A stretch of DNA of 64,000 nucleotides from Escherichia coli (GTDB lineage: Bacteria; Pseudomonadota; Gammaproteobacteria; Enterobacterales; Enterobacteriaceae), in the NCBI RefSeq assembly GCF_022846255.1, contig NZ_AP025682.1; one strand, 5' to 3'. Of the stretch, positions 34,845 through 64,000 are shown piece after piece. The notes under the pieces are model-generated. The model was not told the origin of the DNA and did not search any database. It saw only the letters and a list, made by a program, of their open reading frames with translations. The position numbers and the translations under genes are program-made. The number at the start of each line of letters is the position of its first letter. Positions within the stretch are counted from its first letter, which is position 1.

Positions 34845-34846
34845 GA

Positions 34847-37047: not shown

Positions 37048-37084
37048 GTAGGCCGGATAAGGCGTTCACGCCGCATCCGGCAAG
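37048..37084. repeat. REP palindrome between wzc and wcaA
   Basis: gtaggccggataaggcgttcacgccgcatccggcaag. Confidence 0.55.
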
Positions 37085-37115
37085 CAAACCAGCTCATAAG
37101 CCGGGAGAACAACCT

Positions 37116-37955: not shown

Positions 37956-37957
37956 AG

Positions 37958-40855: not shown

Positions 40856-40890
40856 TTCGAGTTGCAGGAAGTGGGTGAGCGAGGAAAACC

Positions 40891-40922
<32 letters not shown>

Positions 40923-40935
40923 TACGAGGTAAAAC

Positions 40936-41682: not shown

Positions 41683-41697
41683 ATATAAGGGAAAACG

Positions 41698-42246: not shown

Positions 42247-42272
42247 ATTCAAAAAATACAGAGGAATAAGAC

Positions 42273-43394: not shown

Positions 43395-43396
43395 GC

Positions 43397-44362
43397 ATGA
43401 GTAAACAACGCATTTTTATCGCTGGCCATCGCGGGATGGTCGGTTCTGCCATCAGGCGGCAGCTCGAACAGCGCGGTGATGTGGAACTGGTATTACGCAC
43501 CCGCGACGAACTGAACCTGCTGGACAGCCGCGCGGTGCATGATTTCTTTGCCAGCGAGCGCATTGACCAGGTCTATCTGGCGGCGGCGAAAGTAGGCGGC
43601 ATTGTTGCCAACAACACATATCCGGCAGATTTCATCTACCAGAACATGATGATTGAGAGCAACATCATTCACGCCGCGCATCAGAACGACGTCAACAAAC
43701 TGCTGTTTCTCGGATCGTCCTGTATCTACCCAAAACTGGCAAAACAGCCGATGGTAGAAAGCGAGCTGTTACAGGGCACGCTGGAGCCGACCAACGAGCC
43801 ATACGCCATTGCCAAAATCGCCGGGATCAAACTGTGCGAATCTTACAACCGCCAGTACGGACGCGATTACCGCTCTGTCATGCCGACCAACCTGTACGGG
43901 CCGCACGACAACTTCCATCCGAGTAATTCGCATGTGATCCCTGCATTGCTGCGTCGCTTCCACGAGGCGACGGCACAGAATGCACCGGACGTGGTGGTGT
44001 GGGGCAGCGGTACACCGATGCGCGAATTTCTGCACGTCGATGATATGGCGGCGGCGAGCATTCATGTGATGGAGCTGGCGCACGAAGTCTGGCTGGAGAA
44101 CACCCAACCGATGCTGTCGCACATTAACGTCGGCACGGGCGTTGACTGCACTATCCGCGAGCTGGCGCAAACCATCGCCAAAGTGGTGGGTTACAAAGGT
44201 CGGGTGGTTTTTGATGCCAGTAAACCGGATGGTACGCCGCGCAAACTGCTGGATGTGACGCGGTTGCATCAGCTTGGCTGGTATCACGAAATTTCACTGG
44301 AAGCGGGGCTTGCCAGCACTTACCAGTGGTTCCTTGAGAATCAAGACCGCTTTCGGGGGTAA
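43397..44362 (+). CDS. fcl: GDP-L-fucose synthase (GDP-4-keto-6-deoxymannose 3,5-epimerase/4-reductase)
   Basis: 321 aa, [19 protein letters not shown]... Confidence 0.95.
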
Positions 44363-44844
44363 TGATGTTTTTACGTCAGGAAGACTTTGCCACGGTAGTG
44401 CGCTCCACACCGCTTGTCTCTCTCGACTTTATTGTTGAGAACAGTCGCGGCGAGTTTCTGCTTGGCAAAAGAACCAACCGCCCGGCGCAGGGTTACTGGT
44501 TTGTGCCGGGAGGGCGCGTGCAGAAAGACGAAACGCTGGAAGCCGCATTTGAGCGGCTGACGATGGCGGAACTGGGGCTGCGTCTGCCGATAACAGCAGG
44601 CCAGTTTTACGGTGTCTGGCAGCACTTTTATGACGATAACTTCTCCGGCACGGATTTTACCACTCACTATGTGGTGCTCGGTTTTCGCTTCAGAGTAGCG
44701 GAAGAAGAGCTGTTACTGCCGGATGAGCAGCATGACGATTACCGCTGGCTGACGCCGGACGCGTTGCTCGCCAGTAACGATGTTCACGCTAACAGCCGCG
44801 CCTATTTTCTCGCTGAGAAGCGTGCCGGAGTACCCGGATTATGA
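44362..44844 (+). CDS. gmm: GDP-mannose mannosyl hydrolase (Nudix)
   Basis: About 160 aa with a Nudix fold; start overlaps the fcl stop. Confidence 0.9.
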
Positions 44845-46064
44845 AAATACTGGTCTACGGCATTAACTACTCGCCGGAGTTAACCGGCATCGGCAAATAC
44901 ACCGGAGAGATGGTTGAATGGCTGGCGGCGCAAGGTCATGAGGTGCGGGTTATTACCGCACCGCCTTACTACCCGCAGTGGCAGGTGGGCGAGAACTATT
45001 CCGCCTGGCGGTACAAACGGGAAGAGGGGGCCGCCACGGTGTGGCGCTGCCCGCTGTACGTGCCAAAACAGCCGAGCACCCTGAAACGCCTGTTGCATCT
45101 CGGCAGTTTTGCCGTCAGCAGTTTTTTCCCGTTGATGGCGCAACGTCGCTGGAAGCCGGATCGCATTATCGGCGTAGTGCCAACGCTGTTTTGCACGCCA
45201 GGAATGCGCCTGCTGGCGAAACTGTCTGGTGCGCGCACGGTGCTCCATATTCAGGATTACGAAGTGGACGCCATGCTGGGGCTGGGCCTTGCCGGAAAAG
45301 GTAAAGGCGGCAAAGTGGCACAGCTGGCAACGGCGTTCGAACGTAGCGGACTGCATAACGTCGATAACGTCTCCACGATTTCGCGTTCGATGATGAATAA
45401 AGCTATCGAAAAAGGCGTGGCGGCGGAAAACGTCATCTTCTTCCCCAATTGGTCGGAAATCGCCCGTTTTCAACATGTTGCAGACGCCGATGTTGACGCC
45501 CTTCGTAACCAGCTTGGCCTGCCGGATAACAAAAAAATCATTCTTTACTCCGGCAATATTGGTGAAAAGCAGGGACTGGAAAACGTTATTGAAGCTGCCG
45601 ATCGCCTGCGCGATGAACCGCTGATTTTTGCCATTGTCGGGCAGGGCGGCGGCAAAGCGCGGCTGGAAAAAATGGCGCAGCAGCGTGGACTGCGCAACAT
45701 GCAATTTTTTCCGCTGCAATCGTATGACGCTTTACCCGCACTGCTGAAGATGGGGGATTGCCATCTGGTGGTGCAAAAACGCGGCGCGGCAGATGCCGTA
45801 TTGCCGTCGAAACTGACCAATATTCTGGCGGTAGGCGGTAACGCGGTGATTACCGCAGAAGCCCACACAGAACTGGGGCAGCTTTGCGAAACCTTTCCGG
45901 GCATTGCGGTTTGCGTGGAACCGGAATCGGTCGAGGCGCTGGTGGCGGGGATTCGTCAGGCGTTCCTGCTGCCCAAACACAACACGGTGGCACGTGAATA
46001 TGCCGAACGCACGCTCGATAAAGAGAACGTGTTACGTCAATTTATAAATGATATTCGGGGATAA
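44841..46064 (+). CDS. wcaI: colanic acid glycosyltransferase WcaI (GT4 family)
   Basis: 407 aa, [24 protein letters not shown]... Confidence 0.9.
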
Positions 46065-46066
46065 TT

Positions 46067-47503
46067 ATGGCGCAGTCGAAACTCTATCCAGTTGTGATGG
46101 CAGGTGGCTCCGGTAGCCGCTTATGGCCGCTTTCCCGCGTACTTTACCCCAAGCAGTTTTTATGCCTGAAAGGCGATCTCACCATGCTGCAAACCACCAT
46201 CTGCCGCCTGAACGGCGTGGAGTGCGAAAGCCCGGTGGTGATTTGCAATGAGCAGCACCGCTTTATTGTCGCGGAACAGCTGCGTCAACTGAATAAACTC
46301 ACCGAGAACATTATTCTCGAACCGGCAGGGCGTAACACTGCACCGGCCATTGCGCTGGCGGCGCTGGCGGCAAAACGTCATAGCCCGGAGAGCGACCCGT
46401 TAATGCTGGTCTTGGCGGCGGATCATGTGATTGCCGACGAAGACGCGTTCCGTGCCGCCGTGCGTAATGCCATGCCGTATGCCGAAGCGGGTAAGCTGGT
46501 CACCTTCGGCATTGTGCCGGATCTACCTGAAACCGGATATGGCTATATTCGTCGCGGTGAAGTGTCGGCGGGCGAGCAGGATACGGTGGCCTTTGAAGTG
46601 GCGCAGTTTGTCGAAAAACCGAATCTGGAAACCGCTCAGGCCTATGTGGCAAGCGGCGAATATTACTGGAACAGCGGTATGTTCCTGTTCCGTGCCGGAC
46701 GCTATCTCGAAGAACTGAAAAAATATCGCCCGGATATTCTCGATGCCTGCGAAAAAGCGATGAGCGCCGTCGATCCGGATCTCGATTTTATTCGTGTGGA
46801 TGAAGAAGCGTTTCTGGCCTGCCCGGAAGAGTCGGTGGATTACGCGGTCATGGAACGCACGGCAGATGCCGTTGTGGTGCCGATGGATGCAGGCTGGAGC
46901 GATGTCGGCTCCTGGTCCTCTTTATGGGAGATCAGCGCCCACACCGCCGAGGGCAACGTTTGCCATGGCGATGTGATTAATCACAAAACTGAAAACAGCT
47001 ATGTGTATGCCGAATCTGGCCTGGTCACCACCGTCGGGGTGAAAGATTTGGTGGTAGTGCAGACCAAAGATGCGGTGCTGATTGCCGACCGTAATGCGGT
47101 GCAGGATGTGAAAAAAGTGGTCGAGCAGATCAAAGCTGATGGTCGCCATGAGCATCGGGTGCATCGCGAAGTGTATCGTCCGTGGGGCAAATATGACTCT
47201 ATCGACGCGGGCGACCGCTATCAGGTGAAACGCATCACCGTGAAACCGGGCGAAGGCTTGTCAGTACAGATGCACCATCACCGCGCGGAACACTGGGTAG
47301 TGGTCGCGGGAACGGCAAAAGTCACTATTGACGGTGATATCAAACTGCTTGGTGAAAACGAGTCCATTTATATTCCGCTGGGGGCGACGCACTGCCTGGA
47401 AAACCCGGGGAAAATTCCGCTCGATTTAATTGAAGTGCGCTCCGGCTCTTATCTCGAAGAGGATGATGTGGTGCGCTTCGCGGATCGCTACGGACGGGTG
47501 TAG
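46067..47503 (+). CDS. manC: mannose-1-phosphate guanylyltransferase (CpsB/ManC)
   Basis: 478 aa; nucleotidyltransferase ([11 protein letters not shown]) plus C-terminal cupin domain. Confidence 0.95.
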
Positions 47504-47603
47504 CCGTTGAATAATCAACCGGATTAATTCTCCGGTAAATAACGAAAAAACAAAATTGGCCGTTTCGGTCAGGGCCAACTATTGCCTGAAAAAGGGTAAC
47601 GAC

Positions 47604-48974
47604 ATGAAAAAATTAACCTGCTTTAAAGCCTATGATATTCGCGGGAAATTAGGCGAAGAACTGAATGAAGATATCGCCTGGCGCATTGGTCGCGCCTATG
47701 GCGAATTTCTCAAACCGAAAACCATTGTGTTAGGCTGTGATGTCCGCCTCACCAGCGAAACCTTAAAACTGGCGCTGGCGAAAGGTTTACAGGATGCGGG
47801 CGTCGATGTGCTGGATATTGGCATGTCCGGCACCGAAGAGATCTATTTCGCCACGTTCCATCTCGGCGTGGATGGTGGCATTGAAGTTACCGCCAGCCAT
47901 AACCCGATGGATTACAACGGCATGAAGCTGGTGCGCGAGGGGGCCCGCCCGATCAGCGGTGATACCGGACTGCGCGATGTCCAGCGTCTGGCAGAAGCCA
48001 ACGACTTCCCTCCCGTTGATGAAACCAAACGCGGTCGCTATCAGCAAATCAATCTGCGTGACGCTTACGTTGATCACCTGTTCGGTTATATCAACGTCAA
48101 AAACCTCACGCCGCTCAAGCTGGTGATCAACTCCGGGAACGGCGCAGCGGGTCCGGTGGTGGACGCCATCGAAGCCCGCTTTAACGCCCTCGGCGCACCT
48201 GTGGAATTGATCAAAGTGCACAACACGCCGGACGGCAATTTCCCCAACGGTATTCCTAACCCGCTGCTGCCAGAATGTCGCGACGACACTCGCAATGCGG
48301 TCATTAAACACGGCGCGGATATGGGCATTGCCTTTGATGGCGATTTTGACCGCTGTTTCCTGTTTGACGAAAAAGGGCAGTTTATCGAGGGTTACTACAT
48401 TGTCGGTTTGCTGGCAGAAGCGTTCCTCGAAAAAAATCCCGGCGCGAAGATCATCCACGATCCACGTCTCTCCTGGAACACCGTTGATGTGGTGACTGCC
48501 GCAGGTGGCACGCCGGTAATGTCGAAAACCGGACACGCCTTTATTAAAGAACGTATGCGCAAGGAAGACGCCATCTACGGTGGCGAAATGAGCGCCCACC
48601 ATTACTTCCGTGATTTCGCTTACTGCGACAGCGGCATGATCCCATGGCTGCTGGTGGCCGAACTGGTGTGCCTGAAAGGAAAAACGCTGGGCGAACTGGT
48701 GCGCGACCGGATGGCAGCGTTTCCGGCAAGCGGTGAGATCAACAGCAAACTGGCGCAACCCGTTGAGGCGATTAACCGCGTCGAACAGCATTTTAGCCGT
48801 GAGGCGCTGGCGGTGGATCGCACCGATGGCATCAGTATGACCTTTGCCGACTGGCGCTTTAATCTGCGCTCCTCCAACACCGAACCGGTGGTGCGGTTGA
48901 ATGTGGAATCGCGCGGTGACGTGCCGCTGATGGAAGCGCGAACGCGAACTCTGCTGACGTTGCTGAACGAGTAA
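47604..48974 (+). CDS. manB: phosphomannomutase (CpsG/ManB)
   Basis: 456 aa from ATG at 47604 ([14 protein letters not shown]...); active-site TASHNP motif. Confidence 0.95.
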
Positions 48975-48985
48975 TGTCGGATCTT

Positions 48986-49010
48986 CCCTTACCCCACTGC
49001 GGGTAAGGGG
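48986..49010 (+). terminator. stem-loop between manB and wcaJ (cccttacccc-actgc-gggtaagggg); possible intra-operon attenuator or RNA-processing hairpin
   Basis: Perfect 9-10 bp inverted repeat read from the sequence; no clear U-tract, so function is uncertain. Confidence 0.3.
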
Positions 49011-49028
49011 CTAATAACAGGAACAACG

Positions 49029-50423
49029 ATGACAAATCTAAAAAAGCGCGAGCGAGCGAAAACCAATGCATCGTTAATCTCTATGGTGCAACGCTTTTCA
49101 GATATCACCATCATGTTTGCCGGACTATGGCTGGTTTGCGAAGTGAGCGGACTGTCATTCCTCTACATGCACCTGTTGGTGGCGCTGATTACGCTGGTGG
49201 TGTTCCAGATGCTGGGCGGCATCACCGATTTTTATCGCTCATGGCGCGGTGTTCGGGCATCGACAGAATTTGCTCTGTTGCTACAAAACTGGACGTTAAG
49301 CGTGATTTTCAGCGCCGGACTGGTGGCGTTTAACAATGATTTCGACACGCAACTGAAAATCTGGCTGGCGTGGTATGGACTGACCAGCATCGGACTGGTG
49401 GTTTGCCGTTCGTGTATTCGCATTGGGGCGGGCTGGCTGCGTAATCATGGCTATAACAAACGCATGGTCGCCGTAGCGGGGGATTTAGCCGCCGGACAAA
49501 TGCTGATGGAAAGCTTCCGTAATCAGCCGTGGTTAGGGTTTGAAGTGGTGGGCGTTTACCACGACCCGAAACCGGGCGGCGTTTCTAACGACTGGGCGGG
49601 CAATCTGCAACAACTGGTCGAGGATGCGAAAGCGGGCAAGATTCATAACGTCTATATCGCGATGCAGATGTGCGACGGCGCGCGAGTGAAAAAACTGGTC
49701 CATCAACTGGCGGACACCACCTGTTCGGTGCTGCTGATCCCCGATGTCTTTACCTTCAACATTCTCCATTCCCGTCTCGAAGAGATGAACGGCGTACCGG
49801 TGGTGCCGCTGTATGACACGCCGCTTTCCGGGGTTAACCGCCTGCTAAAACGTGCGGAAGATATTGTGCTGGCGACGCTTATTCTGCTGCTGATCTCCCC
49901 GGTGCTGTGCTGTATTGCGCTGGCGGTAAAACTCAGTTCACCAGGACCGGTTATTTTCCGCCAGACTCGCTATGGCATGGATGGCAAGCCGATCAAAGTG
50001 TGGAAGTTCCGTTCGATGAAAGTGATGGAGAACGACAAAGTGGTGACCCAGGCGACGCAGAACGATCCGCGCGTCACCAAAGTGGGGAACTTTCTGCGCC
50101 GCACCTCGCTGGATGAATTGCCGCAGTTTATCAATGTGCTGACCGGGGGGATGTCGATTGTCGGTCCACGTCCGCACGCGGTGGCGCATAACGAACAGTA
50201 TCGCCAGCTCATTGAAGGCTACATGCTGCGCCATAAAGTGAAACCGGGCATTACCGGTTGGGCGCAGATTAACGGCTGGCGCGGCGAAACCGACACGCTG
50301 GAGAAAATGGAAAAACGCGTCGAGTTCGACCTTGAGTACATCCGCGAATGGAGCGTCTGGTTCGATATCAAAATCGTTTTCCTGACGGTATTCAAGGGCT
50401 TCGTTAACAAAGCGGCATATTGA
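49029..50423 (+). CDS. wcaJ: undecaprenyl-phosphate glucose phosphotransferase WcaJ (initiating transferase)
   Basis: 464 aa; polyisoprenyl-phosphate hexose-1-phosphate transferase C-terminal domain (PGITGWAQINGWRGETD). Confidence 0.93.
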   Translation: MTNLKKRERAKTNASLISMVQRFSDITIMFAGLWLVCEVSGLSFLYMHLLVALITLVVFQMLGGITDFYRSWRGVRASTEFALLLQNWTLSVIFSAGLVAFNNDFDTQLKIWLAWYGLTSIGLVVCRSCIRIGAGWLRNHGYNKRMVAVAGDLAAGQMLMESFRNQPWLGFEVVGVYHDPKPGGVSNDWAGNLQQLVEDAKAGKIHNVYIAMQMCDGARVKKLVHQLADTTCSVLLIPDVFTFNILHSRLEEMNGVPVVPLYDTPLSGVNRLLKRAEDIVLATLILLLISPVLCCIALAVKLSSPGPVIFRQTRYGMDGKPIKVWKFRSMKVMENDKVVTQATQNDPRVTKVGNFLRRTSLDELPQFINVLTGGMSIVGPRPHAVAHNEQYRQLIEGYMLRHKVKPGITGWAQINGWRGETDTLEKMEKRVEFDLEYIREWSVWFDIKIVFLTVFKGFVNKAAY

Positions 50424-50424
50424 T

Positions 50425-51903
50425 ATGAGCTTACGTGAAAAAACCATCAGCGGCGCGAAGTGGTCGGCGATTGCCACGGTGATCATCATCGGCCTCGGGC
50501 TGGTGCAAATGACCGTGCTGGCGCGGATTATCGACAACCACCAGTTCGGTTTGCTGACTGTGTCGCTGGTGATTATCGCGTTGGCAGATACACTTTCTGA
50601 CTTCGGTATCGCTAACTCGATTATTCAGCGAAAAGAAATCAGCCACCTTGAACTCACCACGCTGTACTGGCTGAACGTTGGGCTGGGGCTTGTGGTGTGC
50701 GTGGCGGTGTTTTTGTTGAGTGATCTCATCGGTGACGTGCTGAATAACCCGGACCTGGCACCGTTGATTAAAACATTGTCGCTGGCGTTTGTGGTGATCC
50801 CCCACGGGCAGCAGTTCCGCGCGTTGATGCAAAAAGAGCTGGAGTTCAACAAAATCGGCATGATCGAAACCAGCGCGGTGCTGGCGGGCTTCACTTTTAC
50901 GGTGGTTAGCGCCCATTTCTGGCCACTGGCGATGACCGCGATCCTCGGTTATCTGGTCAATAGTGCGGTAAGAACGCTGCTGTTTGGCTACTTTGGTCGC
51001 AAAATTTATCGCCCCGGTCTGCATTTCTCGCTGGCGTCGGTGGCACCGAACTTACGCTTTGGTGCCTGGCTGACGGCGGACAGCATCATCAACTATCTCA
51101 ATACCAACCTTTCAACGCTGGTGCTGGCGCGTATTCTCGGCGCGGGCGTGGCAGGGGGATACAACCTGGCGTACAACGTGGCCGTTGTGCCGCCGATGAA
51201 GCTGAACCCAATCATCACCCGCGTGTTGTTTCCGGCATTTGCCAAAATTCAGGACGACACCGAAAAGCTGCGCGTTAACTTCTACAAGCTGCTGTCGGTA
51301 GTGGGGATTATCAACTTTCCGGCGCTGCTGGGGCTGATGGTGGTGTCGAATAACTTTGTACCGCTGGTCTTTGGTGAGAAGTGGAACAGCATTATTCCGG
51401 TGCTGCAATTGCTGTGTGTGGTGGGGCTGCTGCGCTCAGTGGGGAACCCGATTGGTTCGCTGCTGATGGCGAAAGCGCGGGTCGATATCAGCTTTAAATT
51501 CAACGTATTCAAAACCTTTCTGTTTATTCCGGCGATTGTTATTGGTGGGCAGATGGCGGGCGCAATCGGCGTCACGCTTGGCTTCCTGCTGGTGCAGATT
51601 ATCAACACCATTCTGAGCTATTTCGTGATGATTAAACCGGTTCTTGGTTCCAGTTATCGCCAGTACATCCTGAGTTTGTGGCTGCCGTTTTACCTCTCGC
51701 TGCCGACGCTGGTGGTTAGTTCTGCGCTGGGCATTGTGCTGAAAGGGCAACTGGCGCTGGGGATGCTGCTGGCGGTGCAAATAACCGCGGGCGTGCTGGC
51801 GTTTGTGGTGATGATTGTGCTGTCACGCCATCCGCTGGTAGTGGAAGTGAAGCGTCAGTTTTGTCGCAGCGAAAAAATGAAAATGCTTTTACGGGCGGGG
51901 TGA
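50425..51903 (+). CDS. wzxC: colanic acid repeat-unit flippase WzxC
   Basis: 492 aa polytopic membrane protein of the Wzx/MOP family. Confidence 0.92.
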   Translation: MSLREKTISGAKWSAIATVIIIGLGLVQMTVLARIIDNHQFGLLTVSLVIIALADTLSDFGIANSIIQRKEISHLELTTLYWLNVGLGLVVCVAVFLLSDLIGDVLNNPDLAPLIKTLSLAFVVIPHGQQFRALMQKELEFNKIGMIETSAVLAGFTFTVVSAHFWPLAMTAILGYLVNSAVRTLLFGYFGRKIYRPGLHFSLASVAPNLRFGAWLTADSIINYLNTNLSTLVLARILGAGVAGGYNLAYNVAVVPPMKLNPIITRVLFPAFAKIQDDTEKLRVNFYKLLSVVGIINFPALLGLMVVSNNFVPLVFGEKWNSIIPVLQLLCVVGLLRSVGNPIGSLLMAKARVDISFKFNVFKTFLFIPAIVIGGQMAGAIGVTLGFLLVQIINTILSYFVMIKPVLGSSYRQYILSLWLPFYLSLPTLVVSSALGIVLKGQLALGMLLAVQITAGVLAFVVMIVLSRHPLVVEVKRQFCRSEKMKMLLRAG

Positions 51904-51975
51904 ATGGCTGTTTTCGGTTCCGGCAACGAACACAACAAACATAGCCTCACCTGGCATCAAATTTATGAGGAAAAA

Positions 51976-53256
51976 ATGAAATTACTTATTCTGGGCAACC
52001 ACACTTGCGGCAATCGCGGCGACAGCGCCATCTTGCGCGGCTTACTTGATGCCATCAACATCCTCAATCCACACGCCGAAGTGGACGTGATGAGTCGCTA
52101 TCCGGTCAGTTCTTCCTGGCTGCTCAACCGTCCGGTAATGGGCGATCCGCTGTTCCTGCAAATGAAACAACACAACAGCGCGGCGGGCGTGGTTGGGCGC
52201 GTTAAAAAAGTTCTCCGTCGCCGCTACCAGCACCAGGTATTGCTCTCACGCGTCACCGACACTGGCAAGCTGCGTAATATCGCCATCGCCCAGGGATTCA
52301 CCGACTTCGTGCGCCTGCTGTCAGGTTACGACGCCATTATTCAGGTCGGCGGATCGTTTTTTGTCGATCTCTACGGCGTTCCGCAGTTTGAACATGCGCT
52401 TTGCACGTTTATGGCGAAAAAGCCGCTGTTTATGATTGGTCACAGCGTCGGCCCGTTCCAGGATGAGCAATTTAACCAACTGGCGAACTACGTATTCGGT
52501 CACTGCGACGCGCTGATCCTGCGCGAATCGGTCAGCCTTGAACTGATGAAACGCAGCAATATCACCACCGCAAAAGTCGAACATGGCGTCGATACCGCGT
52601 GGCTGGTCGATCACCACACCGAAGACTTCACCGCCAGCTATGCCGTTCAACACTGGCTGGACGTTGCCGCACAACAGAAAACGGTGGCCATTACCCTGCG
52701 CGAACTGGCACCGTTTGACAAACGTCTCGGCACCACCCAACAAGCGTATGAAAAAGCCTTTGCCGGGGTGGTCAATCGCATTCTCGATGAAGGGTATCAG
52801 GTGATTGCGCTCTCCACCTGTACGGGCATCGACAGCTATAACAAAGACGACCGCATGGTGGCGCTCAATCTGCGCCAGCACATCAGCGATCCTGCCCGTT
52901 ACCACGTAGTGATGGATGAACTCAACGATCTGGAAATGGGCAAAATTCTCGGTGCCTGTGAACTCACCGTTGGTACGCGCCTGCACTCTGCCATTATCTC
53001 GATGAACTTTGCCACTCCGGCGATTGCCATCAACTACGAACATAAATCCGCCGGGATCATGCAACAACTGGGGCTACCAGAGATGGCAATTGATATCCGT
53101 CATTTATTAGACGGCAGCCTGCAAGCGATGGTTGCGGATACCTTAGGTCAGCTTCCGGCGCTGAACGCACGACTTAACGAAGCTGTCAGTCGCGAACGTC
53201 AGACGGGAATGCAGATGGTGAAATCTGTGCTTGAACGCATCGGGGAGGCAAAATGA
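51976..53256 (+). CDS. wcaK: colanic acid pyruvyl transferase WcaK
   Basis: 426 aa from ATG at 51976 (MKLLILGNHTCGNRGD...). The supplied ORF start at 51904 is an extension. Confidence 0.9.
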   Translation: MKLLILGNHTCGNRGDSAILRGLLDAINILNPHAEVDVMSRYPVSSSWLLNRPVMGDPLFLQMKQHNSAAGVVGRVKKVLRRRYQHQVLLSRVTDTGKLRNIAIAQGFTDFVRLLSGYDAIIQVGGSFFVDLYGVPQFEHALCTFMAKKPLFMIGHSVGPFQDEQFNQLANYVFGHCDALILRESVSLELMKRSNITTAKVEHGVDTAWLVDHHTEDFTASYAVQHWLDVAAQQKTVAITLRELAPFDKRLGTTQQAYEKAFAGVVNRILDEGYQVIALSTCTGIDSYNKDDRMVALNLRQHISDPARYHVVMDELNDLEMGKILGACELTVGTRLHSAIISMNFATPAIAINYEHKSAGIMQQLGLPEMAIDIRHLLDGSLQAMVADTLGQLPALNARLNEAVSRERQTGMQMVKSVLERIGEAK

Positions 53257-54473
53257 AGGTCGGCTTCTTTTTACTGAAATTTCCGTTGTCGTCGGAAACC
53301 TTCGTCCTCAATCAAATTACCGCGTTTATTGATATGGGCTTTGAAGTGGAGATTGTCGCGCTGCAAAAAGGCGACACACAAAACACCCACGCGGCATGGA
53401 CGAAATACAACCTTGCCGCCAGAACCCGCTGGTTACAGGACGAACCTGCGGGCAAAGTGGCGAAACTGCGCCACCGCGCCAGCCAGACCTTACGCGGCAT
53501 TCATCGTAAAAATACCTGGCAGGCGCTCAACCTCAAACGCTATGGTGCTGAGTCGCGGAACCTGATTTTGTCTGCCATTTGCGGTAAGGTCGCAACACCG
53601 TTTCATGCCGATGTCTTTATCGCTCATTTTGGCCCTGCGGGGGTAACCGCAGCAAAACTACGCGAACTGGGTGTCATTCGCGGCAAAATTGCCACTATCT
53701 TCCACGGTATTGATATCTCCAGTCGGGAGGTGCTCAACCACTACACTCCCGAATATCAGCAACTGTTCCGCCGTGGCGACCTGATGCTACCGATCAGCGA
53801 TCTGTGGGCCGGAAGGCTGCAAAAAATGGGATGCCCGAGGGAAAAAATCGCCGTATCGCGCATGGGCGTGGACATGACGCGCTTTAGCCCGCGTCCGGTG
53901 AAAGCGCCCGCAACACCGCTGGAAATCATTTCCGTCGCACGCTTAACCGAGAAAAAAGGCCTGCATGTGGCGATTGAAGCCTGCCGTCAGTTGAAAGAGC
54001 AGGGCGTGGCATTTCGCTATCGCATCCTCGGCATTGGTCCGTGGGAACGACGCCTGCGCACCCTCATCGAACAATATCAACTGGAAGATGTGGTGGAGAT
54101 GCCGGGCTTTAAACCGAGCCACGAAGTGAAAGCGATGCTAGACGACGCGGATGTCTTCCTGTTGCCATCGGTTACAGGTGCGGATGGCGATATGGAAGGT
54201 ATTCCGGTGGCGCTGATGGAAGCGATGGCGGTCGGTATTCCGGTGGTTTCTACTCTGCATAGCGGAATTCCTGAACTGGTGGAGGCCGATAAATCCGGCT
54301 GGTTGGTGCCTGAGAACGATGCTCGCGCACTGGCGCAACGACTGGCGGCGTTTAGCCAACTGGACACCGACGAACTGGCTCCGGTCGTCAAACGTGCTCG
54401 CGAAAAAGTCGAACACGATTTTAACCAGCAGGTGATCAATCGAGAACTCGCCAGCTTGCTGCAGGCTTTATAG
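53253..54473 (+). CDS. wcaL: colanic acid glycosyltransferase WcaL (GT4 family)
   Basis: 406 aa, [22 protein letters not shown]... Confidence 0.9.
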
Positions 54474-54483
54474 AGGAGAACGC

Positions 54484-55878
54484 ATGCCATTTAAAAAACT
54501 CTCCCGACGCACGTTCCTGACGGCAAGCTCGGTGCTTGCCTTCCTCCATACGCCTTTCGCCCGTGCAATTCCCGCTCAACAAAGCGTTAACATTAACGAC
54601 TACAACCCTCACGACTGGATCGCCTCATTTAAACAAGCCTTCAGCGAAGGGCAAACGGTCGTCGTGCCTGCCGGATTGGTTTGTGACAATATCAACACTG
54701 GCATCTTCATTCCTTCTGGCAAAACGTTACACATCCTCGGAAGCCTGCGCGGCAACGGTAGAGGGCGATTTGTCTTACAGGACGGCAGCCAGGTGACAGG
54801 GGAGGAGGGCGGCAGTATGCATAACATCACCCTGGATGTGCGTGGTTCTGACTGCACCATCAAAGGGCTGGTGATGAGCGGCTTTGGCCCGGTGACGCAG
54901 ATCTATATCGGCGGCAAAAACAAACGGGTCATGCACAACCTGACCATCGATAACCTGACCGTTAGCCACGCTAATTACGCCATCTTACGCCAGGGATTTC
55001 ATAACCAGATAATCGGTGCCAACATCACCAACTGTAAGTTCAGCGACTTACAGGGCGACGCTATTGAATGGAACGTGGCGATTAACGACAGTGATATTTT
55101 GATATCCGACCATCTCATTGAGCGCATTAACTGTACCAACGGCAAAATCAACTGGGGCATCGGCATAGGTCTTGCGGGAAGCACTTATGATAACAACTAC
55201 CCGGAAGACCAGGCAGTGAAAAACTTTGTCGTGGCGAATATCACGGGATCGGATTGTCGGCAACTGATCCATGTTGAAAATGGTAAACATTTTGTTATTC
55301 GTAATATCAAAGCCCGTAATATCACGCCGGATTTCAGTAAGAAAGCAGGTATTGATAACGCCACAGTTGCTATTTATGGTTGTGACAACTTTGTGATTGA
55401 TAATATTGAAATGATTAATAGTGCCGGGATGTTAATCGGCTATGGGGTAATTAAAGGCAAATATCTCTCGATACCGCAGAATTTCCGAGTGAATGATATT
55501 CAACTGGATAATACTCATCTTGCTTATAAATTGCGCGGCATTCAAATCTCCGCCGGGAATGCTGTCTCCTTTGTGGCGCTGACTAACATTGAGATGAAGC
55601 GTGCGTCGCTTGAGCTACACAACAAACCGCAACATCTTTTTATGCGCAATATCAATGTGATGCAGGAATCCTCAGTTGGACCCGCATTGAGCATGAACTT
55701 TGACATGCGCAAAGACGTTCGAGGCGTTTTTATGGCGAAAAAAGAAACACTGCTGTCTCTTGCAAATGTTCATGCGGTGAATGAAAAAGGACAAAGCTCC
55801 GTCGATATCGACAGGATTAATCACCATATTGTTAATGTGGCAAAGATTAACTTTAGATTGCCGGAACGGAGAGAGTAG
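54484..55878 (+). CDS. wcaM: colanic acid biosynthesis protein WcaM (secreted beta-helix-like protein)
   Basis: 464 aa with an N-terminal signal peptide; last gene of the cluster. Confidence 0.88.
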
Positions 55879-56052: not shown

Positions 56053-56946
56053 ATGACGAATTTAAAAGCAGTTATTCCTGTAGCGGGTCTTGGGATGCAT
56101 ATGTTGCCTGCCACTAAGGCGATTCCCAAAGAGATGCTACCGATCGTCGACAAGCCAATGATTCAGTACATCGTTGACGAGATTGTGGCTGCAGGGATCA
56201 AAGAAATCCTCCTGGTAACTCACGCTTCCAAGAACGCGGTCGAAAACCACTTCGACACCTCTTATGAATTAGAATCTCTCCTTGAACAGCGCGTGAAGCG
56301 TCAACTGCTGGCGGAAGTACAGTCCATTTGCCCGCCGGGCGTGACAATTATGAACGTGCGTCAGGGCGAACCTTTAGGTTTGGGCCACTCCATTTTATGT
56401 GCACGACCTGCCATTGGTGACAATCCATTTGTCGTGGTGCTGCCAGACGTTGTGATCGACGACGCCAGCGCCGACCCGCTGCGCTACAACCTTGCTGCCA
56501 TGATTGCGCGCTTCAACGAAACGGGCCGCAGCCAGGTGCTGGCAAAACGTATGCCGGGTGACCTCTCTGAATACTCTGTCATCCAGACCAAAGAGCCGCT
56601 GGACCGCGAAGGTAAAGTCAGCCGCATTGTTGAATTCATCGAAAAACCGGATCAGCCGCAGACGCTGGACTCAGACATCATGGCCGTTGGTCGCTATGTG
56701 CTTTCTGCCGATATTTGGCCGGAACTTGAACGCACTCAGCCTGGTGCATGGGGGCGTATTCAGCTGACTGATGCCATTGCCGAACTGGCGAAAAAACAGT
56801 CCGTTGATGCCATGCTGATGACCGGCGACAGCTACGACTGCGGTAAAAAAATGGGTTATATGCAAGCGTTCGTGAAGTATGGACTACGCAACCTCAAAGA
56901 AGGGGCGAAGTTCCGTAAAGGGATTGAGAAGCTGTTAAGCGAATAA
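56053..56946 (+). CDS. galF: UTP-glucose-1-phosphate uridylyltransferase regulatory subunit GalF
   Basis: 297 aa from ATG at 56053 ([32 protein letters not shown]...). Confidence 0.93.
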
Positions 56947-57204
56947 TGAAAATCTGACCGGATGTAACGGTTGATAAGAAAATTATAACGGCAGTGAAGA
57001 TTAGCGGCGAAAGTAATTTGTTGCGAATTTTCCTGCCGTTGTTTTATATAAACAATCAGAATAACAACGACTTAGCAATAGGATTTTAGTCAAAGTTTTC
57101 CAGGATTTTCCTTGTTTCCAGAGCGGATTGGTAAGACAATTAGCGCTTGAATTTTTCGAGTTAAGCGCGAGTGGGTAACGCTCGTCACATCGTAGGAATG
57201 CATG

Positions 57205-57243
57205 CAGTGCTCTGGTAGCTGTAAAGCCAGGGGCGGTAGCGTG
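57205..57243 (+). promoter_or_regulatory. JUMPstart element with ops site (GGCGGTAGCGTG at 57232-57243) in the O-antigen operon leader
   Basis: Exact ops consensus preceded by GGTAGC, about 75 bp upstream of rmlB; the same 30-nt core (agccaggggcggtagcgtg) as the cps leader copy. Confidence 0.75.
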
Positions 57244-57318: not shown

Positions 57319-58404
57319 GTGAAGATACTTGTTACTGGGGGCGCAGGATTTATTGGTTCTGCTGTAGTTCGTCACATTATAAATAATACGCAGGATAGTG
57401 TTGTTAATGTCGATAAATTAACGTACGCCGGAAACCTGGAATCACTTGCTGATGTTTCTGACTCTGAACGCTATGTTTTTGAACATGCGGATATTTGCGA
57501 TGCTGCTGCAATGGCGCGGATTTTTGCTCAGCATCAGCCGGATGCAGTGATGCACCTGGCTGCTGAAAGCCATGTGGATCGTTCAATTACAGGCCCTGCG
57601 GCATTTATTGAAACCAATATTGTTGGTACTTATGTCCTTTTGGAAGCGGCTCGCAATTACTGGTCTGCTCTTGATGGCGACAAGAAAAATAGCTTCCGTT
57701 TTCATCATATTTCTACTGACGAAGTCTATGGTGATTTGCCTCATCCTGACGAAGTAAATAATAAAGAACAATTACCCCTCTTTACTGAGACGACAGCTTA
57801 CGCGCCTAGTAGTCCTTATTCCGCATCAAAAGCATCCAGCGATCATTTAGTCCGCGCGTGGAAACGTACCTATGGTTTACCGACTATTGTGACTAACTGT
57901 TCGAATAACTACGGTCCTTATCACTTTCCGGAAAAATTGATTCCACTAGTAATTCTTAATGCTCTGGAAGGTAAGGCATTACCTATTTATGGCAAAGGGG
58001 ATCAAATTCGTGACTGGCTGTATGTTGAAGATCATGCGCGTGCGTTATATACCGTAGTTACTGAAGGTCAAGCGGGTGAAACCTATAACATTGGCGGACA
58101 CAACGAAAAGAAAAACATCGATGTTGTGCTGACTATTTGTGATTTGTTGGACGAGATAGTCCCGAAAGAGAAATCTTATCGTGAGCAAATTACTTATGTT
58201 GCTGATCGCCCAGGGCATGATCGCCGTTATGCGATTGATGCTGAGAAGATTGGTCGCGAATTGGGATGGAAACCACAGGAAACGTTTGAGAGTGGGATTC
58301 GTAAAACGGTGGAATGGTATTTGGCTAATGCAAAATGGGTTGATAATGTGAAAAGTGGTGCCTATCAATCGTGGATTGAACAGAACTATGAGGGCCGCCA
58401 GTAA
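57319..58404 (+). CDS. rmlB: dTDP-glucose 4,6-dehydratase
   Basis: 361 aa, GTG start, (M)[20 protein letters not shown]...; SDR family. Confidence 0.93.
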
Positions 58405-59303
58405 TGAATATCCTCCTTTTTGGCAAAACAGGGCAGGTAGGTTGGGAACTACAGCGTGCTCTGGCACCTCTGGGTAATTTGATTGCTCTTGATGTTCACT
58501 CCACTGATTACTGTGGTGATTTTAGTAACCCTGAAGGTGTGGCTGAAACAGTCAAAAGAATTCGACCTGATGTTATTGTTAATGCTGCGGCTCACACCGC
58601 AGTAGATAAGGCTGAGTCAGAACCCGAATTTGCACAATTACTCAATGCGACTAGCGTTGAATCAATTGCAAAAGCGGCAAATGAAGTTGGGGCTTGGGTA
58701 ATTCATTACTCAACTGACTACGTATTCCCTGGAAATGGCGACACGCCATGGCTGGAGATGGATGCAACCGCACCGCTAAATGTTTACGGTGAAACCAAGT
58801 TAGCTGGAGAAAAAGCATTACAAGAGCATTGTGCGAAGCACCTAATTTTCCGTACCAGCTGGGTCTATGCAGGTAAAGGAAATAATTTCGCCAAAACGAT
58901 GTTGCGTCTGGCAAAAGAGCGTGAAGAACTAGCCGTTATTAATGATCAGTTTGGTGCGCCAACAGGTGCTGAACTGCTGGCTGATTGTACGGCACATGCC
59001 ATTCGTGTCGCACTGAATAAACCGGATGTCGCAGGCTTGTACCATTTGGTAGCCAGTGGTACCACAACCTGGTACGATTATGCTGCGCTGGTTTTTGAAG
59101 AGGCGCGCAATGCAGGCATTCCTCTTGCACTCAACAAGCTCAACGCAGTACCAACAACTGCCTATCCTACACCAGCTCGTCGTCCACATAACTCTCGCCT
59201 TAATACAGAAAAATTTCAGCAGAATTTTGCGCTTGTATTGCCTGACTGGCAGGTTGGTGTGAAACGCATGCTCAACGAATTATTTACGACTACAGCAATT
59301 TAA
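58404..59303 (+). CDS. rmlD: dTDP-4-dehydrorhamnose reductase
   Basis: 299 aa, [20 protein letters not shown]... Confidence 0.93.
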   Translation: MNILLFGKTGQVGWELQRALAPLGNLIALDVHSTDYCGDFSNPEGVAETVKRIRPDVIVNAAAHTAVDKAESEPEFAQLLNATSVESIAKAANEVGAWVIHYSTDYVFPGNGDTPWLEMDATAPLNVYGETKLAGEKALQEHCAKHLIFRTSWVYAGKGNNFAKTMLRLAKEREELAVINDQFGAPTGAELLADCTAHAIRVALNKPDVAGLYHLVASGTTTWYDYAALVFEEARNAGIPLALNKLNAVPTTAYPTPARRPHNSRLNTEKFQQNFALVLPDWQVGVKRMLNELFTTTAI

Positions 59304-59360
59304 TAGTTTTTGCATCTTGTTCGTGATGGTGGAGCAAGATGAATTAAAAGGAATGATGAA

Positions 59361-60239
59361 ATGAAAACGCGTAAAGGTATTATTTTAGCGGGTGGTTCTG
59401 GTACTCGTCTTTATCCTGTGACTATGGTCGTCAGTAAACAGCTATTACCTATATATGATAAACCGATGATCTATTATCCGCTTTCTACACTGATGTTAGC
59501 GGGTATTCGCGATATTCTGATTATTAGTACGCCACAGGATACTCCTCGTTTTCAACAACTGCTGGGTGACGGTAGCCAGTGGGGCCTGAATCTTCAGTAC
59601 AAAGTGCAACCGAGTCCGGATGGTCTTGCGCAGGCATTTATTATCGGTGAAGAGTTTATTGGTGGTGATGATTGTGCTTTGGTACTTGGTGATAATATCT
59701 TCTACGGTCACGACCTGCCTAAGTTAATGGATGCCGCTGTTAACAAAGAAAGTGGTGCAACGGTATTTGCCTATCACGTTAATGATCCTGAACGCTATGG
59801 TGTCGTTGAGTTTGATAAAAACGGTACGGCGATCAGCCTGGAAGAAAAACCGCTACAACCAAAAAGTAATTATGCGGTAACCGGGCTTTATTTTTATGAT
59901 AACGACGTTGTCGAAATGGCGAAAAATCTTAAGCCTTCTGCCCGCGGTGAACTGGAAATTACCGATATTAACCGTATCTATATGGAACAAGGGCGTTTAT
60001 CTGTTGCCATGATGGGGCGTGGTTATGCGTGGTTAGACACGGGGACACATCAGAGCCTGATTGAGGCAAGCAACTTTATTGCAACAATTGAAGAGCGTCA
60101 GGGGCTGAAAGTTTCCTGCCCGGAAGAAATTGCTTACCGTAAAGGGTTTGTTGATGCTGAGCAGGTGAAAGTATTAGCTGAACCTCTGAAAAAAAATGCT
60201 TATGGTCAGTATCTGCTGAAAATGATTAAAGGTTATTAA
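59361..60239 (+). CDS. rmlA: glucose-1-phosphate thymidylyltransferase
   Basis: 292 aa, [21 protein letters not shown]... Confidence 0.95.
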
Positions 60240-60243
60240 TAAA

Positions 60244-60792
60244 ATGAACGTAATTAAAACAGAAATTCCTGATGTACTGATTTTTGAACCGAAAGTTTTT
60301 GGTGATGAGCGTGGTTTCTTTTTTGAGAGCTTTAACCAGAAGGTTTTTGAGGAAGCTGTAGGCCGCAAAGTTGAATTTGTTCAGGATAACCATTCGAAGT
60401 CTAGTAAAGGTGTTTTACGCGGGCTGCATTATCAGTTGGAACCTTATGCACAAGGAAAATTGGTGCGTTGCGTTGTCGGTGAAGTTTTTGACGTAGCTGT
60501 TGATATTCGTAAATCGTCATCGACTTTTGGCAAATGGGTTGGGGTGAATTTATCTGCTGAGAATAAGCGGCAATTGTGGATTCCTGAGGGATTTGCACAT
60601 GGTTTTTTAGTGCTGAGTGAGACGGCGGAGTTTTTGTATAAGACGACAAATTATTATCATCCTCAGAGTGATAGAGGAATAAAATGGGATGATCCAAGTA
60701 TCAATATTTCATGGCCAGTCGATTCACAAGTGCTGCTATCAGCTAAAGATAATAAGCATCCTCCATTAACAAAGATTGAAATGTATAGTTAA
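60244..60792 (+). CDS. rmlC: dTDP-4-dehydrorhamnose 3,5-epimerase
   Basis: 182 aa cupin-fold RmlC (…GLHYQLEPYAQGKLVRCVVGEVFDVAVDIRK…). Confidence 0.93.
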   Translation: MNVIKTEIPDVLIFEPKVFGDERGFFFESFNQKVFEEAVGRKVEFVQDNHSKSSKGVLRGLHYQLEPYAQGKLVRCVVGEVFDVAVDIRKSSSTFGKWVGVNLSAENKRQLWIPEGFAHGFLVLSETAEFLYKTTNYYHPQSDRGIKWDDPSINISWPVDSQVLLSAKDNKHPPLTKIEMYS

Positions 60793-60823
60793 GATCACGA
60801 TAAATCTTGGAAGGGTTGCAAAA

Positions 60824-62062
60824 TTGAATAAAATAGTGAGCAAAAGTGAAATAAGGAACGTAATCCACAATGCTGGCTATATGATGATTACTCAGATAGC
60901 TTTATATGTTGCACCATTATTTATACTGAGTTATCTGTTAAAAACACTGGGGGTTGCACAGTTTGGTAATTATGCCTTAATACTATCAATCGTTGCATAT
61001 TTACAGATTATAACGGATTATGGTTTTTCTTTTAGTGCAAGTCGTGCGATCTCACAGAATAGAGAGGACAAAGAATATATATCAAAAATTTATCTGTCAA
61101 CTATGACTATCAAGTTGGCGATATGCGCTTTCTTATTCTTATTGCTCATGCTATTTTTAAATCTTTTGCCTGTGCAAGCTGAATTAAAACAAGGAATATT
61201 ATATGGATATCTTCTTGTAATAGGAAATACTTTCCAACCACAATGGTTTTTCCAAGGTATCGAAAAATTAAAAATCATAGCCCTTTCTAATGTTATATCA
61301 AGATGCGCCGCGTGTTTACTTGTATTTATCTATGTGAGGAATAGCGAGGATTTACAAAAAGCACTTTTAGTACAGTCACTTCCATTAGTAATTTCTGCGA
61401 TTGGATTAAATATATTTATATTGAAATATATCAATATTATTTTTCCGGAAAAAAAATTATTTAAGGTAATTTTAAAAGAAGGTAAGGATTTTTTTCTTGC
61501 ATCACTTTATTCTGTTATTCTCAATAATAGTGGCATTTTTCTATTAGGGATTTTTACTAATCCTGTTATTGTTGGTGTATATGCCGCCGCTGAAAAGATA
61601 GTCAAGGCCGTATTGTCGCTATTTACACCACTGACGCAAGCTATATATCCTTATAATTGTCGTAAGTTTTCACTATCCGTATTTGACGGCATTGAGGCAG
61701 CAAAAAAAACTGGTATACCAATTATAATTTTAGCATTTATAGCTGCTGTTATCGTTGCAATTACCTTACCTGTTGCAATCGACTATCTTAATTTTCCAAA
61801 AGAAACAATTTTTGTAGGTCAAATATTAAGTGCATGGATCTTTTTTGGTGTTCTTAATAATGTATTCGGCATTCAGATATTGAGTGCATCAGGAAGAAGT
61901 AAAATATATAGTAGGATGGTATTCGTATCAGCGCTTATAACATTACTTTTGATTACTCTATTATTGCAGTTTTGTAACGCCACTGGAGTGGCATGTGCAA
62001 TATTATTGGGTGAAATGTTCTTATCAATATTGTTACTTAAGCGATATAAAAAAATAATTTAA
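60824..62062 (+). CDS. wzx: O-antigen flippase Wzx (start codon uncertain: TTG at 60824 or ATG at 60881)
   Basis: Very AT-rich, polytopic membrane protein of about 395-410 aa directly after rmlC. The supplied ORF begins at 60776, overlapping rmlC. A ggaagg RBS precedes TTG 60824. Confidence 0.75.
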   Translation: MNKIVSKSEIRNVIHNAGYMMITQIALYVAPLFILSYLLKTLGVAQFGNYALILSIVAYLQIITDYGFSFSASRAISQNREDKEYISKIYLSTMTIKLAICAFLFLLLMLFLNLLPVQAELKQGILYGYLLVIGNTFQPQWFFQGIEKLKIIALSNVISRCAACLLVFIYVRNSEDLQKALLVQSLPLVISAIGLNIFILKYINIIFPEKKLFKVILKEGKDFFLASLYSVILNNSGIFLLGIFTNPVIVGVYAAAEKIVKAVLSLFTPLTQAIYPYNCRKFSLSVFDGIEAAKKTGIPIIILAFIAAVIVAITLPVAIDYLNFPKETIFVGQILSAWIFFGVLNNVFGIQILSASGRSKIYSRMVFVSALITLLLITLLLQFCNATGVACAILLGEMFLSILLLKRYKKII

Positions 62063-62071
62063 GGAATAGTT

Positions 62072-63199
62072 ATGAAGAAGTTATTATTAGTGTTCGGTAC
62101 TAGGCCTGAAGCAATAAAGATGGCCTCTATCATTGAATTATTAAAAAAAGATTGTAGATTCGAATATAAAATATGTGTGACAGGCCAACATAAAGAGATG
62201 CTTGATCAAGTTATGCAAGTATTTGATGTTAAACCTGATTATAATTTACGGATTATGCAGCCTGGGCAAACATTAGTATCTGTAGCAACAAATATACTCT
62301 CACGGTTAAGTGAAGTTTTAATTATAGAAAAGCCAGATATTATACTTGTGCATGGGGATACAACGACTACCCTTGCTGCTACTTTAGCTGGGTATTACCA
62401 CCAAATAAAAGTTTGTCATGTGGAAGCAGGATTAAGAACAGGGGATATTTACTCTCCTTGGCCTGAAGAGGGCAATCGTAAAGTTACAGGGGCATTAGCA
62501 TGTATTCATTTCGCCCCAACAGAGAGATCAAAAGATAATCTCCTGAGGGAGGGGGTCAAAGTAAATAATATATTTGTAACGGGTAATACCGTCATCGACT
62601 CTTTATTTATTGCAAAAGATATCATAGATAATGACCCTAATATAAAGAACGCTTTACATAATAAATTTAATTTTCTTGATAAAAGCCGACGAGTAGTACT
62701 TATAACAGGTCATCGAAGAGAAAATTTCGGGAAAGGTTTTGAAGATATATGCTTTGCAATAAAGGAATTAGCTTTCATTTATCCTAATGTAGATTTTATT
62801 TATCCGGTGCATCTTAATCCCAATGTAATGGAACCAGTACATCGTATATTAGATAATATATGTAATATTTACCTTATTGAGCCCTTGGATTATTTGCCTT
62901 TTGTTTATTTAATGAATGAGTCATATTTAATATTGACTGATTCAGGGGGGATACAAGAAGAAGCGCCTTCGTTAGGTAAACCGGTTTTGGTTATGCGTGA
63001 TACTACTGAACGCCCTGAGGCGGTTGAGGCTGGTACTGTTGTATTAGTGGGGACTTCTAAGATAAAAATAGTAAATAAAGTAACGGAGCTATTAAACAAT
63101 GCTGATATCTACAATGCTATGTCTCTGTTACATAATCCATATGGCGATGGAACAGCTGCTCAAAAAATTCTTAATGTGCTCGCCCAAGAGCTAATTTAA
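62072..63199 (+). CDS. UDP-N-acetylglucosamine 2-epimerase (non-hydrolysing, WecB/MnaA-like)
   Basis: 375 aa, MKKLLLVFGTRPEAIKMASII... and the HVEAGLRT and DSGGIQEEAPSLGKPVLVMRDTTERPE motifs typical of the WecB family. Confidence 0.85.
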   Translation: MKKLLLVFGTRPEAIKMASIIELLKKDCRFEYKICVTGQHKEMLDQVMQVFDVKPDYNLRIMQPGQTLVSVATNILSRLSEVLIIEKPDIILVHGDTTTTLAATLAGYYHQIKVCHVEAGLRTGDIYSPWPEEGNRKVTGALACIHFAPTERSKDNLLREGVKVNNIFVTGNTVIDSLFIAKDIIDNDPNIKNALHNKFNFLDKSRRVVLITGHRRENFGKGFEDICFAIKELAFIYPNVDFIYPVHLNPNVMEPVHRILDNICNIYLIEPLDYLPFVYLMNESYLILTDSGGIQEEAPSLGKPVLVMRDTTERPEAVEAGTVVLVGTSKIKIVNKVTELLNNADIYNAMSLLHNPYGDGTAAQKILNVLAQELI

Positions 63200-63213
63200 T
63201 TTAAGCTAAAAAT

Positions 63214-64000
63214 ATGTTATTAATTATTGCTGATTATCCAAACGAAATGAATATGCGCGAGGGAGCTATGCAACGAATAGATGCGATAGACTCTCTCATT
63301 CGAGATCGCAAGCGAGTGTATTTGAATATTTCATTCAAAAAGCATCTAGTTCGCTCAAATAGTTCCTTTAATAATGTTATAGTTGAAAATCTAAATGCAA
63401 TTATTCACAGAAACATCATAAAACAGTACATGCAAAAATCAACAACTATATATGTTCATTCTGTTTATAATTTATTAAAGGTTATAACGCTCATTGATCT
63501 AAAAAAAACAATTCTTGATATACATGGTGTTGTACCGGAAGAACTTTTGGCAGATAATAAAAAATTACTTAGTAAAGTATATAACATGGTGGAAAAAAAA
63601 GGTGTCCTTGGATGCAAAAAATTAATACACGTCAGTACAGAAATGCAAAAACACTATGAAGCAAAATATGGAGTAAACTTGGCTGAAAGGTCAATAGTGC
63701 TCCCGATTTTTGAATATAAAAATATAACCCAATCGCAAAACAAATGGACAGAAAATAAAATACGAAGTATCTATCTTGGAGGATTACAAACATGGCAAAA
63801 TATTGATAAAATGATTCAAATTTGTGATGACACAGTGATAAACAATGAAGCAGGTAAGTATGAATTCAACTTTTTCATCCCACAGAGTAACTTGGAAGGG
63901 TTTATAGATAAATATTCGTTAAAATTACATAATATCAATGCTAATGCATCTACGCTATCACGTGATGAAGTAATTCCCTTTCTAAAAGAATGTCATATTG
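63214..64000 (+). CDS. putative O-antigen glycosyltransferase-like protein, 3'-truncated by the window end
   Basis: Open frame from ATG 63214 to the window end (262 codons, no stop; translated by hand: MLLIIADYPNEMNMREGAMQRIDAIDS...). AT-rich, in the O-antigen cluster; family not assignable without a search. Confidence 0.5.
   Translation, partial: MLLIIADYPNEMNMREGAMQRIDAIDSLIRDRKRVYLNISFKKHLVRSNSSFNNVIVENLNAIIHRNIIKQYMQKSTTIYVHSVYNLLKVITLIDLKKTILDIHGVVPEELLADNKKLLSKVYNMVEKKGVLGCKKLIHVSTEMQKHYEAKYGVNLAERSIVLPIFEYKNITQSQNKWTENKIRSIYLGGLQTWQNIDKMIQICDDTVINNEAGKYEFNFFIPQSNLEGFIDKYSLKLHNINANASTLSRDEVIPFLKECHI

Follow-up and report, generated by a model that had tools for sequence, protein, structure and literature searches.

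Two JUMPstart elements ending in ops precede the colanic acid and O1-type O-antigen gene clusters in a region of the Escherichia coli chromosome

The ops element is among the strongest pause signals of E. coli, with RNA polymerase pausing at U11 (PMC5995543). The exposed non-template strand of ops adopts a small hairpin with C3:G8 as closing pair and so offers G5 and T6 to the elongation factor RfaH, which has been shown biochemically to read the non-template DNA strand; G4, G5, A7 and G8 are essential for its recruitment, while T11-G12 drive the pause (PMC5995543). Once loaded, RfaH lessens pausing and excludes NusG, so that Rho-dependent termination is limited; it also recruits a ribosome and counteracts H-NS/StpA filaments (PMC9765446). 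In strain CFT073, RfaH ChIP-seq gave signal at eight leader ops, including those of the O-antigen operon ('wzx') and of wza-wcaM; sigma-70 peaks lie upstream of ops in the CFT073 leaders homologous to those described here, while 22 ops-like sites in coding regions, on the non-template strand, were without RfaH binding (PMC9765446). The wza-wcaM signal was obtained only in a Δhns ΔstpA background and the locus was called 'cryptic' by the authors (PMC9765446), a restriction that stems from silencing of that promoter by H-NS.

Genetic data point in the same direction for the O antigen, as an rfaH mutant of the ExPEC strain EC958 displays lipid A-core only (PMC3789825). For colanic acid, the operon is said to use a 'JUMPStart-RfaH antitermination mechanism', with Stout 1996 and Hobbs & Reeves 1994 cited in support (PMC9976346), and RfaH has been described as needed for kps 'and presumably cps' (PMC3673037). 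The evidence for an RfaH requirement is thus less direct, and weaker, for colanic acid than for the O antigen. RfaH-dependent O antigen, core LPS and capsules underlie the serum resistance of pathogenic E. coli and their virulence, and RfaH has been discussed as a drug target. Here, we compare two ops copies and their surroundings in a 64,000-nt stretch of E. coli chromosome (hereafter the window) with these described systems.

Two ops copies within JUMPstart elements

The window runs from gatD to the rfb cluster of an O1-type O antigen. Sequence comparison revealed 100% identity of the galF-rfbB region and the next 7 kb to several complete genomes, in which the cluster is annotated as rfbBDAC, 'O1 family O-antigen flippase' and 'O1 family O-antigen polymerase'. 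The colanic acid cluster is collinear with, and 97-98% identical to, a stretch of strain 144. The G+C content of the O-antigen genes is 32-39%, compared to ~53% for the colanic acid (cps) genes, and a low value of this kind is typical of H-NS targets. The features on which the analysis rests are collected in Table 1.

Table 1. Features of the two leaders and of the clusters that they precede, in window coordinates.
Feature	Position	Strand	Basis and remarks
Candidate RcsAB box TAAGAAATATCGCA	32759..32772	+	upstream of cps leader; 9/14 positions, including all five conserved ones; by eye
JUMPstart, colanic acid leader	33039..33077	+	yegH-wza spacer; 39 nt; RF01707, 53.8 bits
JUMPstart hairpin, cps copy	33046..33064	+	arms TTGGT 33046-33050 and GCCAG 33060-33064; Rfam alignment
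ops GGCGGTAGCGTG, colanic acid leader	33066..33077	+	exact match; yegH-wza spacer, 178 nt before wza ATG at 33256
Colanic acid cluster wza-wzb-wzc-wcaABCDEF-gmd-fcl-gmm-wcaI-cpsBG-wcaJ-wzxC-wcaKLM	33256..55878	+	20 genes, one strand; ORFs and strain 144 annotation
REP/BIME-like palindrome GCCGGATAAGGCGTTCACGCCGCATCCGGC	37010..37100	+	wzc-wcaA spacer
galF	56053..56946	+	between both clusters; ORF and annotation of 100% identical matches
Strong hairpin with U-tract	56985..57049	+	directly after galF stop; long, terminator-like; inner stem also found by terminator scan
Candidate sigma-70 promoter, O-antigen operon	57112..57140	+	-35 TTGTTT 57112-57117, 17-nt spacer, -10 GACAAT 57135-57140; by eye
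JUMPstart, O-antigen leader	57205..57243	+	galF-rfbB spacer; 39 nt; RF01707, 60.0 bits
JUMPstart hairpin, O-antigen copy	57212..57230	+	arms CTGGT 57212-57216 and GCCAG 57226-57230; RF01707 structure line
ops GGCGGTAGCGTG, O-antigen leader	57232..57243	+	exact match; 372-nt galF-rfbB spacer, 75 nt before rfbB GTG at 57319
O1-type O-antigen cluster rfbB-rfbD-rfbA-rfbC-wzx-wecB-GT2...	57319..64000	+	runs off the window; 100% identity to annotated O1 clusters

Exactly two copies of the ops 12-mer are found on the + strand of the window, 24,166 nt apart, which bears out the original prediction that both leaders carry the same 12-nt ops on the same strand, about 24 kb from each other. Each copy lies in a non-coding spacer and on the coding (non-template) strand, ahead of the first gene of a one-strand cluster of at least seven genes, the presumed targets being the wza-wcaM cluster for the first and the O1 rfb cluster for the second. 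When one mismatch is allowed, three matches are obtained in the window against 0.27 expected, a number that was reached in none of 100 dinucleotide-preserving shuffles; the recurrence of ops is therefore beyond chance. Both sites carry the consensus GGCGGTAGnnTG with its C3:G8 pair, with G4, G5, T6 and A7 and with the pause-inducing T11-G12, and their sequence is the same as that of ops12, the oligonucleotide with which the RfaH:ops structure was studied (PMC5995543). The pause at T11 is expected at position 33076 in the colanic acid leader and 57242 in the O-antigen leader.

An unsupervised repeat search recovered the pair on its own (family D5, 33039-33088 and 57205-57254, 80% identity over 50 nt). 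The longest exact run common to both leaders is AAAGCCAGGGGCGGTAGCGTG, 21 nt at 33057-33077 and 57223-57243, while the identity is 28/30 over the last 30 nt and 34/39 over the full JUMPstart. The identical 30-nt core that had been claimed for the pair is thus shorter than proposed. Comparison of the two leaders gave no similarity beyond the 39-nt element, whose flanks are unrelated.

Both elements match model positions 1-38 of 38 in the Rfam covariance model RF01707 (gathering score 35; scores in Table 1). Each consists of CAGTG, a 5-bp stem around a 9-nt loop, one G and the 12-nt ops in which it ends, and each has the same orientation as the polysaccharide cluster just downstream. A second GGTAGC (57214-57219) falls within the 5' arm and loop of the O-antigen copy, 21 nt upstream of the GGTAGC inside ops. 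The O-antigen copy is identical to the JUMPstart of the K-12 rfb leader at 39/39 positions, and the cps copy is identical to that of K-12 wza at 38/39.

The 39-mer is matched in 5425 of 5426 complete E. coli genomes, at a median of three places per genome (maximum six), and in 61 records of a plasmid collection from Escherichia, Klebsiella, Citrobacter, Salmonella, Enterobacter, Providencia and Pantoea. The wza leader is conserved in 4818 of the 5426 genomes and rfaH, which lies outside the window, is present in 5425 of them. In K-12, a third copy is found in the waaQ leader, wholly inside the annotated sRNA RirA (b4760); alignment of the two window copies with those of K-12 rfb, wza and waaQ leaves 31 of 61 columns invariant. 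RirA itself (73 nt, L004 1167-1239, - strand, in the K-12 waaQ leader) consists for the most part of the JUMPstart and ops of waaQ, and its end comes a short way past a T-run downstream of ops. With about three copies per genome, the element is a regulon signal present in several copies, not a pairwise duplication that ties both operons together. The description of the motif as duplicated and as linking the two operons consequently stands only so far as ops does recur in both leaders.

The consensus GGCGGTAGnnTG has one further match in the window, GGCGGTAGCCTG at 7447-7458 (-), which lies within baeS, on its coding, non-template strand, and is there read in frame as Gly-Gly-Ser-Leu. Since coding-region ops-like sites are unbound by RfaH in CFT073 (PMC9765446), the baeS site is probably inert. 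The 8-nt ops core GGCGGTAG is found ten times in the window against 1.3 expected, the non-leader copies lying at 443, 3900, 7451, 14240, 21806, 32479, 40052 and 45827. Seven of these eight are on the coding strand, when 1.4 would be expected from synonymous-codon shuffling (seven were reached in 2/500 shuffles). Three other 50-kb regions, taken from K-12, hold 2, 3 and 1 copies; these low counts led us to reject a genome-wide coding-strand enrichment of GGCGGTAG, and the excess in the window seems to be a local fluctuation accompanied by a slight bias towards the coding strand.

Other elements were observed in the part of the window upstream of the polysaccharide clusters. The sRNA CyaR (RF00112) is encoded at 3502-3587 (-), with 100.7 bits; strain 144 has a P2-like prophage (tail genes, ogrK) beside CyaR, whereas the window shows an uninterrupted gatD-gatR-yegS-yegR order. 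Two tandem Sib antitoxin RNAs (RF00113; 17695-17837 and 18023-18165, - strand; 137 and 141 bits) make up a direct repeat of 289 nt with 86% identity. The pairing partners of Sib RNAs are the type I toxin genes Ibs, of which three are annotated at the corresponding place in strain 144, so the copy number differs between strains. Finally, the diverged direct repeats at 11593-12370 and 14689-15466 (70-71% identity, spacing 3096 nt) correspond to the tandem paralogous RND transporter genes mdtB and mdtC.

Promoter, terminator and spacer elements of the two operons

The region directly after galF holds a hairpin with a U-tract, and the 141-nt stretch that contains it (56940-57080) has a minimum free energy of -37.6 kcal/mol (z = -4.2), with 0/200 shuffles as stable. 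This hairpin is probably the galF terminator, which would insulate the O-antigen leader from upstream transcription. The presence of a terminator-like hairpin at this place suggests that the O-antigen operon has its own promoter within the 155 nt before the JUMPstart. Scanning around both leaders for sigma-70 promoters returned one weak match each, no more than expected by chance. By eye, a tentative candidate is TTGTTT-17-GACAAT, which falls in the sole available interval between the galF hairpin and the JUMPstart (57050-57204) and from which a leader of ~172 nt would be predicted. The leader of the O7 cluster studied by Marolda and Valvano in 1998 is reportedly 173 nt long, and the predicted length fits this value. 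A link between the capsule and O-antigen operons, as originally proposed, is hence an overstatement, the two starting from separate promoters with the strong terminator-like hairpin after galF between them.

Colanic acid expression is normally silenced by H-NS and dependent on Rcs. The RcsAB box has the consensus TaAGaatatTCcta (PMC4325325), and a search upstream of wza with at most three mismatches gave no match; the candidate TAAGAAATATCGCA, which agrees at 9/14 positions, therefore lies outside that search. A literature search for the exact candidate string gave no match either. We tentatively consider it as an RcsAB box, by which initiation might be controlled separately from ops.

Within the colanic acid cluster, the palindrome stretch of the wzc-wcaA spacer is the sole part without an alignment to strain 144. 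It might serve as an internal attenuator, to be read through by RfaH-modified polymerase. Elsewhere in the two operons, the count of terminator-like sites equals the shuffle expectation, and intrinsic terminators inside the operons were rejected as antitermination targets, their counts being no higher than in shuffled sequence. RfaH therefore probably acts here by overcoming Rho and H-NS more than by overcoming intrinsic terminators. Further downstream, the phosphomannomutase gene cpsG is immediately preceded by a match to the 'algC RNA' motif, located in the cpsB-cpsG spacer (RF02929, 47550-47599, + strand; 78 bits, gathering score 33.8).

Proposed action of RfaH and alternative readings

We consider that the two sites are JUMPstart elements ending in ops, located in the transcribed leaders of the colanic acid wza-wcaM and O1 rfb operons, with a probability of about 0.93. 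Their placement in a transcribed leader is deduced from homology to K-12 and CFT073. The dependence of both operons on RfaH that had been predicted is supported, at the level of sequence, by the exact ops12, its strand and its leader position; it is further backed by the CFT073 ChIP-seq signal at both leaders (PMC9765446) and by the lipid A-core-only phenotype of the rfaH mutant (PMC3789825).

At either site, RNA polymerase transcribing ops would pause at U11, and the hairpin of the exposed non-template GGCGGTAGCGTG would present G5 and T6. RfaH would then bind ops, with release and refolding of its C-terminal domain, and would remain attached to the polymerase until the end of the operon, where it would suppress pausing, exclude NusG, limit Rho-dependent termination, counteract H-NS/StpA bridged filaments and recruit the ribosome to genes with poor Shine-Dalgarno sites. 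The distal genes of both operons would consequently need RfaH in this strain. For the O-antigen operon this need would be constitutive, while for the colanic acid operon it would arise only after RcsAB activates a promoter otherwise silenced by H-NS. We infer that a single regulon signal occurs here twice, each time independently, with no structural link between the operons.

The RfaH-ops reading of both operons is already known, since RfaH recruitment at ops, the ChIP signal at both leaders and the loss of O antigen in mutants have all been published. For the window, its value is one of correct annotation: the sites mark the starts of the colanic acid and O1 O-antigen transcription units. They would explain the full transcription of operons of ~22 kb and >7 kb, one of which has a very low G+C content, and no new biology is implied.

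A regulatory coupling would be added if the shared ops made capsule and O-antigen output depend on each other through competition for RfaH. An Rcs-induced colanic acid operon would then deplete the RfaH available to the O-antigen and core-LPS operons or, by an alternative route, the leaders would yield decoy RNAs resembling RirA. Because at least three polysaccharide leaders (waaQ, wza, rfb) share the same ops and RfaH is scarce, induction of cps could divert the factor; if true, this would be a real regulatory 'link' beyond regulon co-membership. We regard such a coupling as very unlikely.

Also very unlikely is that the element acts mainly as RNA, with a leader hairpin or a RirA-like sRNA that binds or titrates RfaH or another factor, the DNA ops being secondary. 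JUMPstart is indeed listed in Rfam among the cis-regulatory RNAs and has a stem of 5 bp, the K-12 waaQ copy is wholly contained in RirA, and the stem is retained in five of five copies, all five pairs being formed (100% of cells) with one wobble and one compensatory change, U:A to A:U in waaQ. However, that single compensatory pair is not significant among only five sequences, its level being reached by 103/500 shuffles, and neither 39-mer differs from shuffled sequence in its predicted folding energy (z = -0.03 and +0.28). RNA structure as the main signal was rejected, as the 140-nt leaders fold no better than shuffles either. Neither window leader, moreover, shows a T-run just behind ops at which a short transcript could terminate, and RfaH reads non-template DNA (PMC5995543). 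An RNA-level role might apply to the half of the element upstream of ops.

The match might instead be left over from a segmental duplication, or be a junction through which polysaccharide cassettes are exchanged by recombination, with no regulatory role of its own. The two copies are indeed direct repeats flanking a 24-kb polysaccharide cassette, and O-antigen clusters are exchanged laterally, their G+C content departing sharply from that of the surroundings. Against this, conservation falls on precisely the positions that RfaH binding and pausing require (PMC5995543), and the element is also present at the waaQ locus, which is unlinked, and on plasmids from seven genera of enterobacteria. The likeness is limited to 39 nt between unrelated flanks. 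Efficient RecA recombination usually needs a homology at least as long as the exact run found here, which at 21 nt is too short or borderline, and we hold this origin to be very unlikely.

A chance recurrence of a G-rich 12-mer can be dismissed, despite the locally frequent 8-nt core (ten window copies, mostly inside genes), given the shuffling result, the extension of the match to 21 exact and 34/39 nt, and the fact that both copies pass the covariance model and lie in operon leaders.

Comparison with described systems

The RfaH reading of the two leaders places them beside the E. coli ops/RfaH regulon (rfb, waa/rfa, hly, kps, tra, wza), with which they have in common an exact ops12 carried by the non-template strand within a 5' leader. 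As in that regulon, the operons of the window are long, partly low-G+C envelope operons whose first genes have no clear Shine-Dalgarno sequence, none being recognisable by eye just before the wza ATG or the rfbB GTG. The wza site, however, is a 'cryptic' target, and its promoter has to be activated, by Rcs or by loss of H-NS, before RfaH would act.

When compared to the JUMPstart family (Hobbs & Reeves 1994; RF01707), the window copies have the same 39-nt length, the same location upstream of polysaccharide clusters, the ops end and the 5-bp stem. Nothing of substance differs; the cps copy has U:G for C:G at the first stem pair and AAAAA in place of GTAAA within the loop. The JUMPstart and ops core is also that of the RirA/waaQ leader, in which the JUMPstart copy lies ~40 nt from the start of the sRNA and the T-run GCGTGCTTTTTTCTG follows ops, whereas neither window leader has a T-run just after ops or an sRNA annotated there.

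Finally, the colanic acid operon resembles the cps operons of group 1 capsules (K30-type) in its wza-wzb-wzc head, its upstream JUMPstart and the structured spacer after wzc. In group 1 capsules this spacer is a stem-loop attenuator, while here it is a REP-like palindrome and a putative attenuator. In strains that make colanic acid, galF and its JUMPstart precede the O-antigen cluster and not the capsule cluster (PMC6128206), which is the arrangement of the window.
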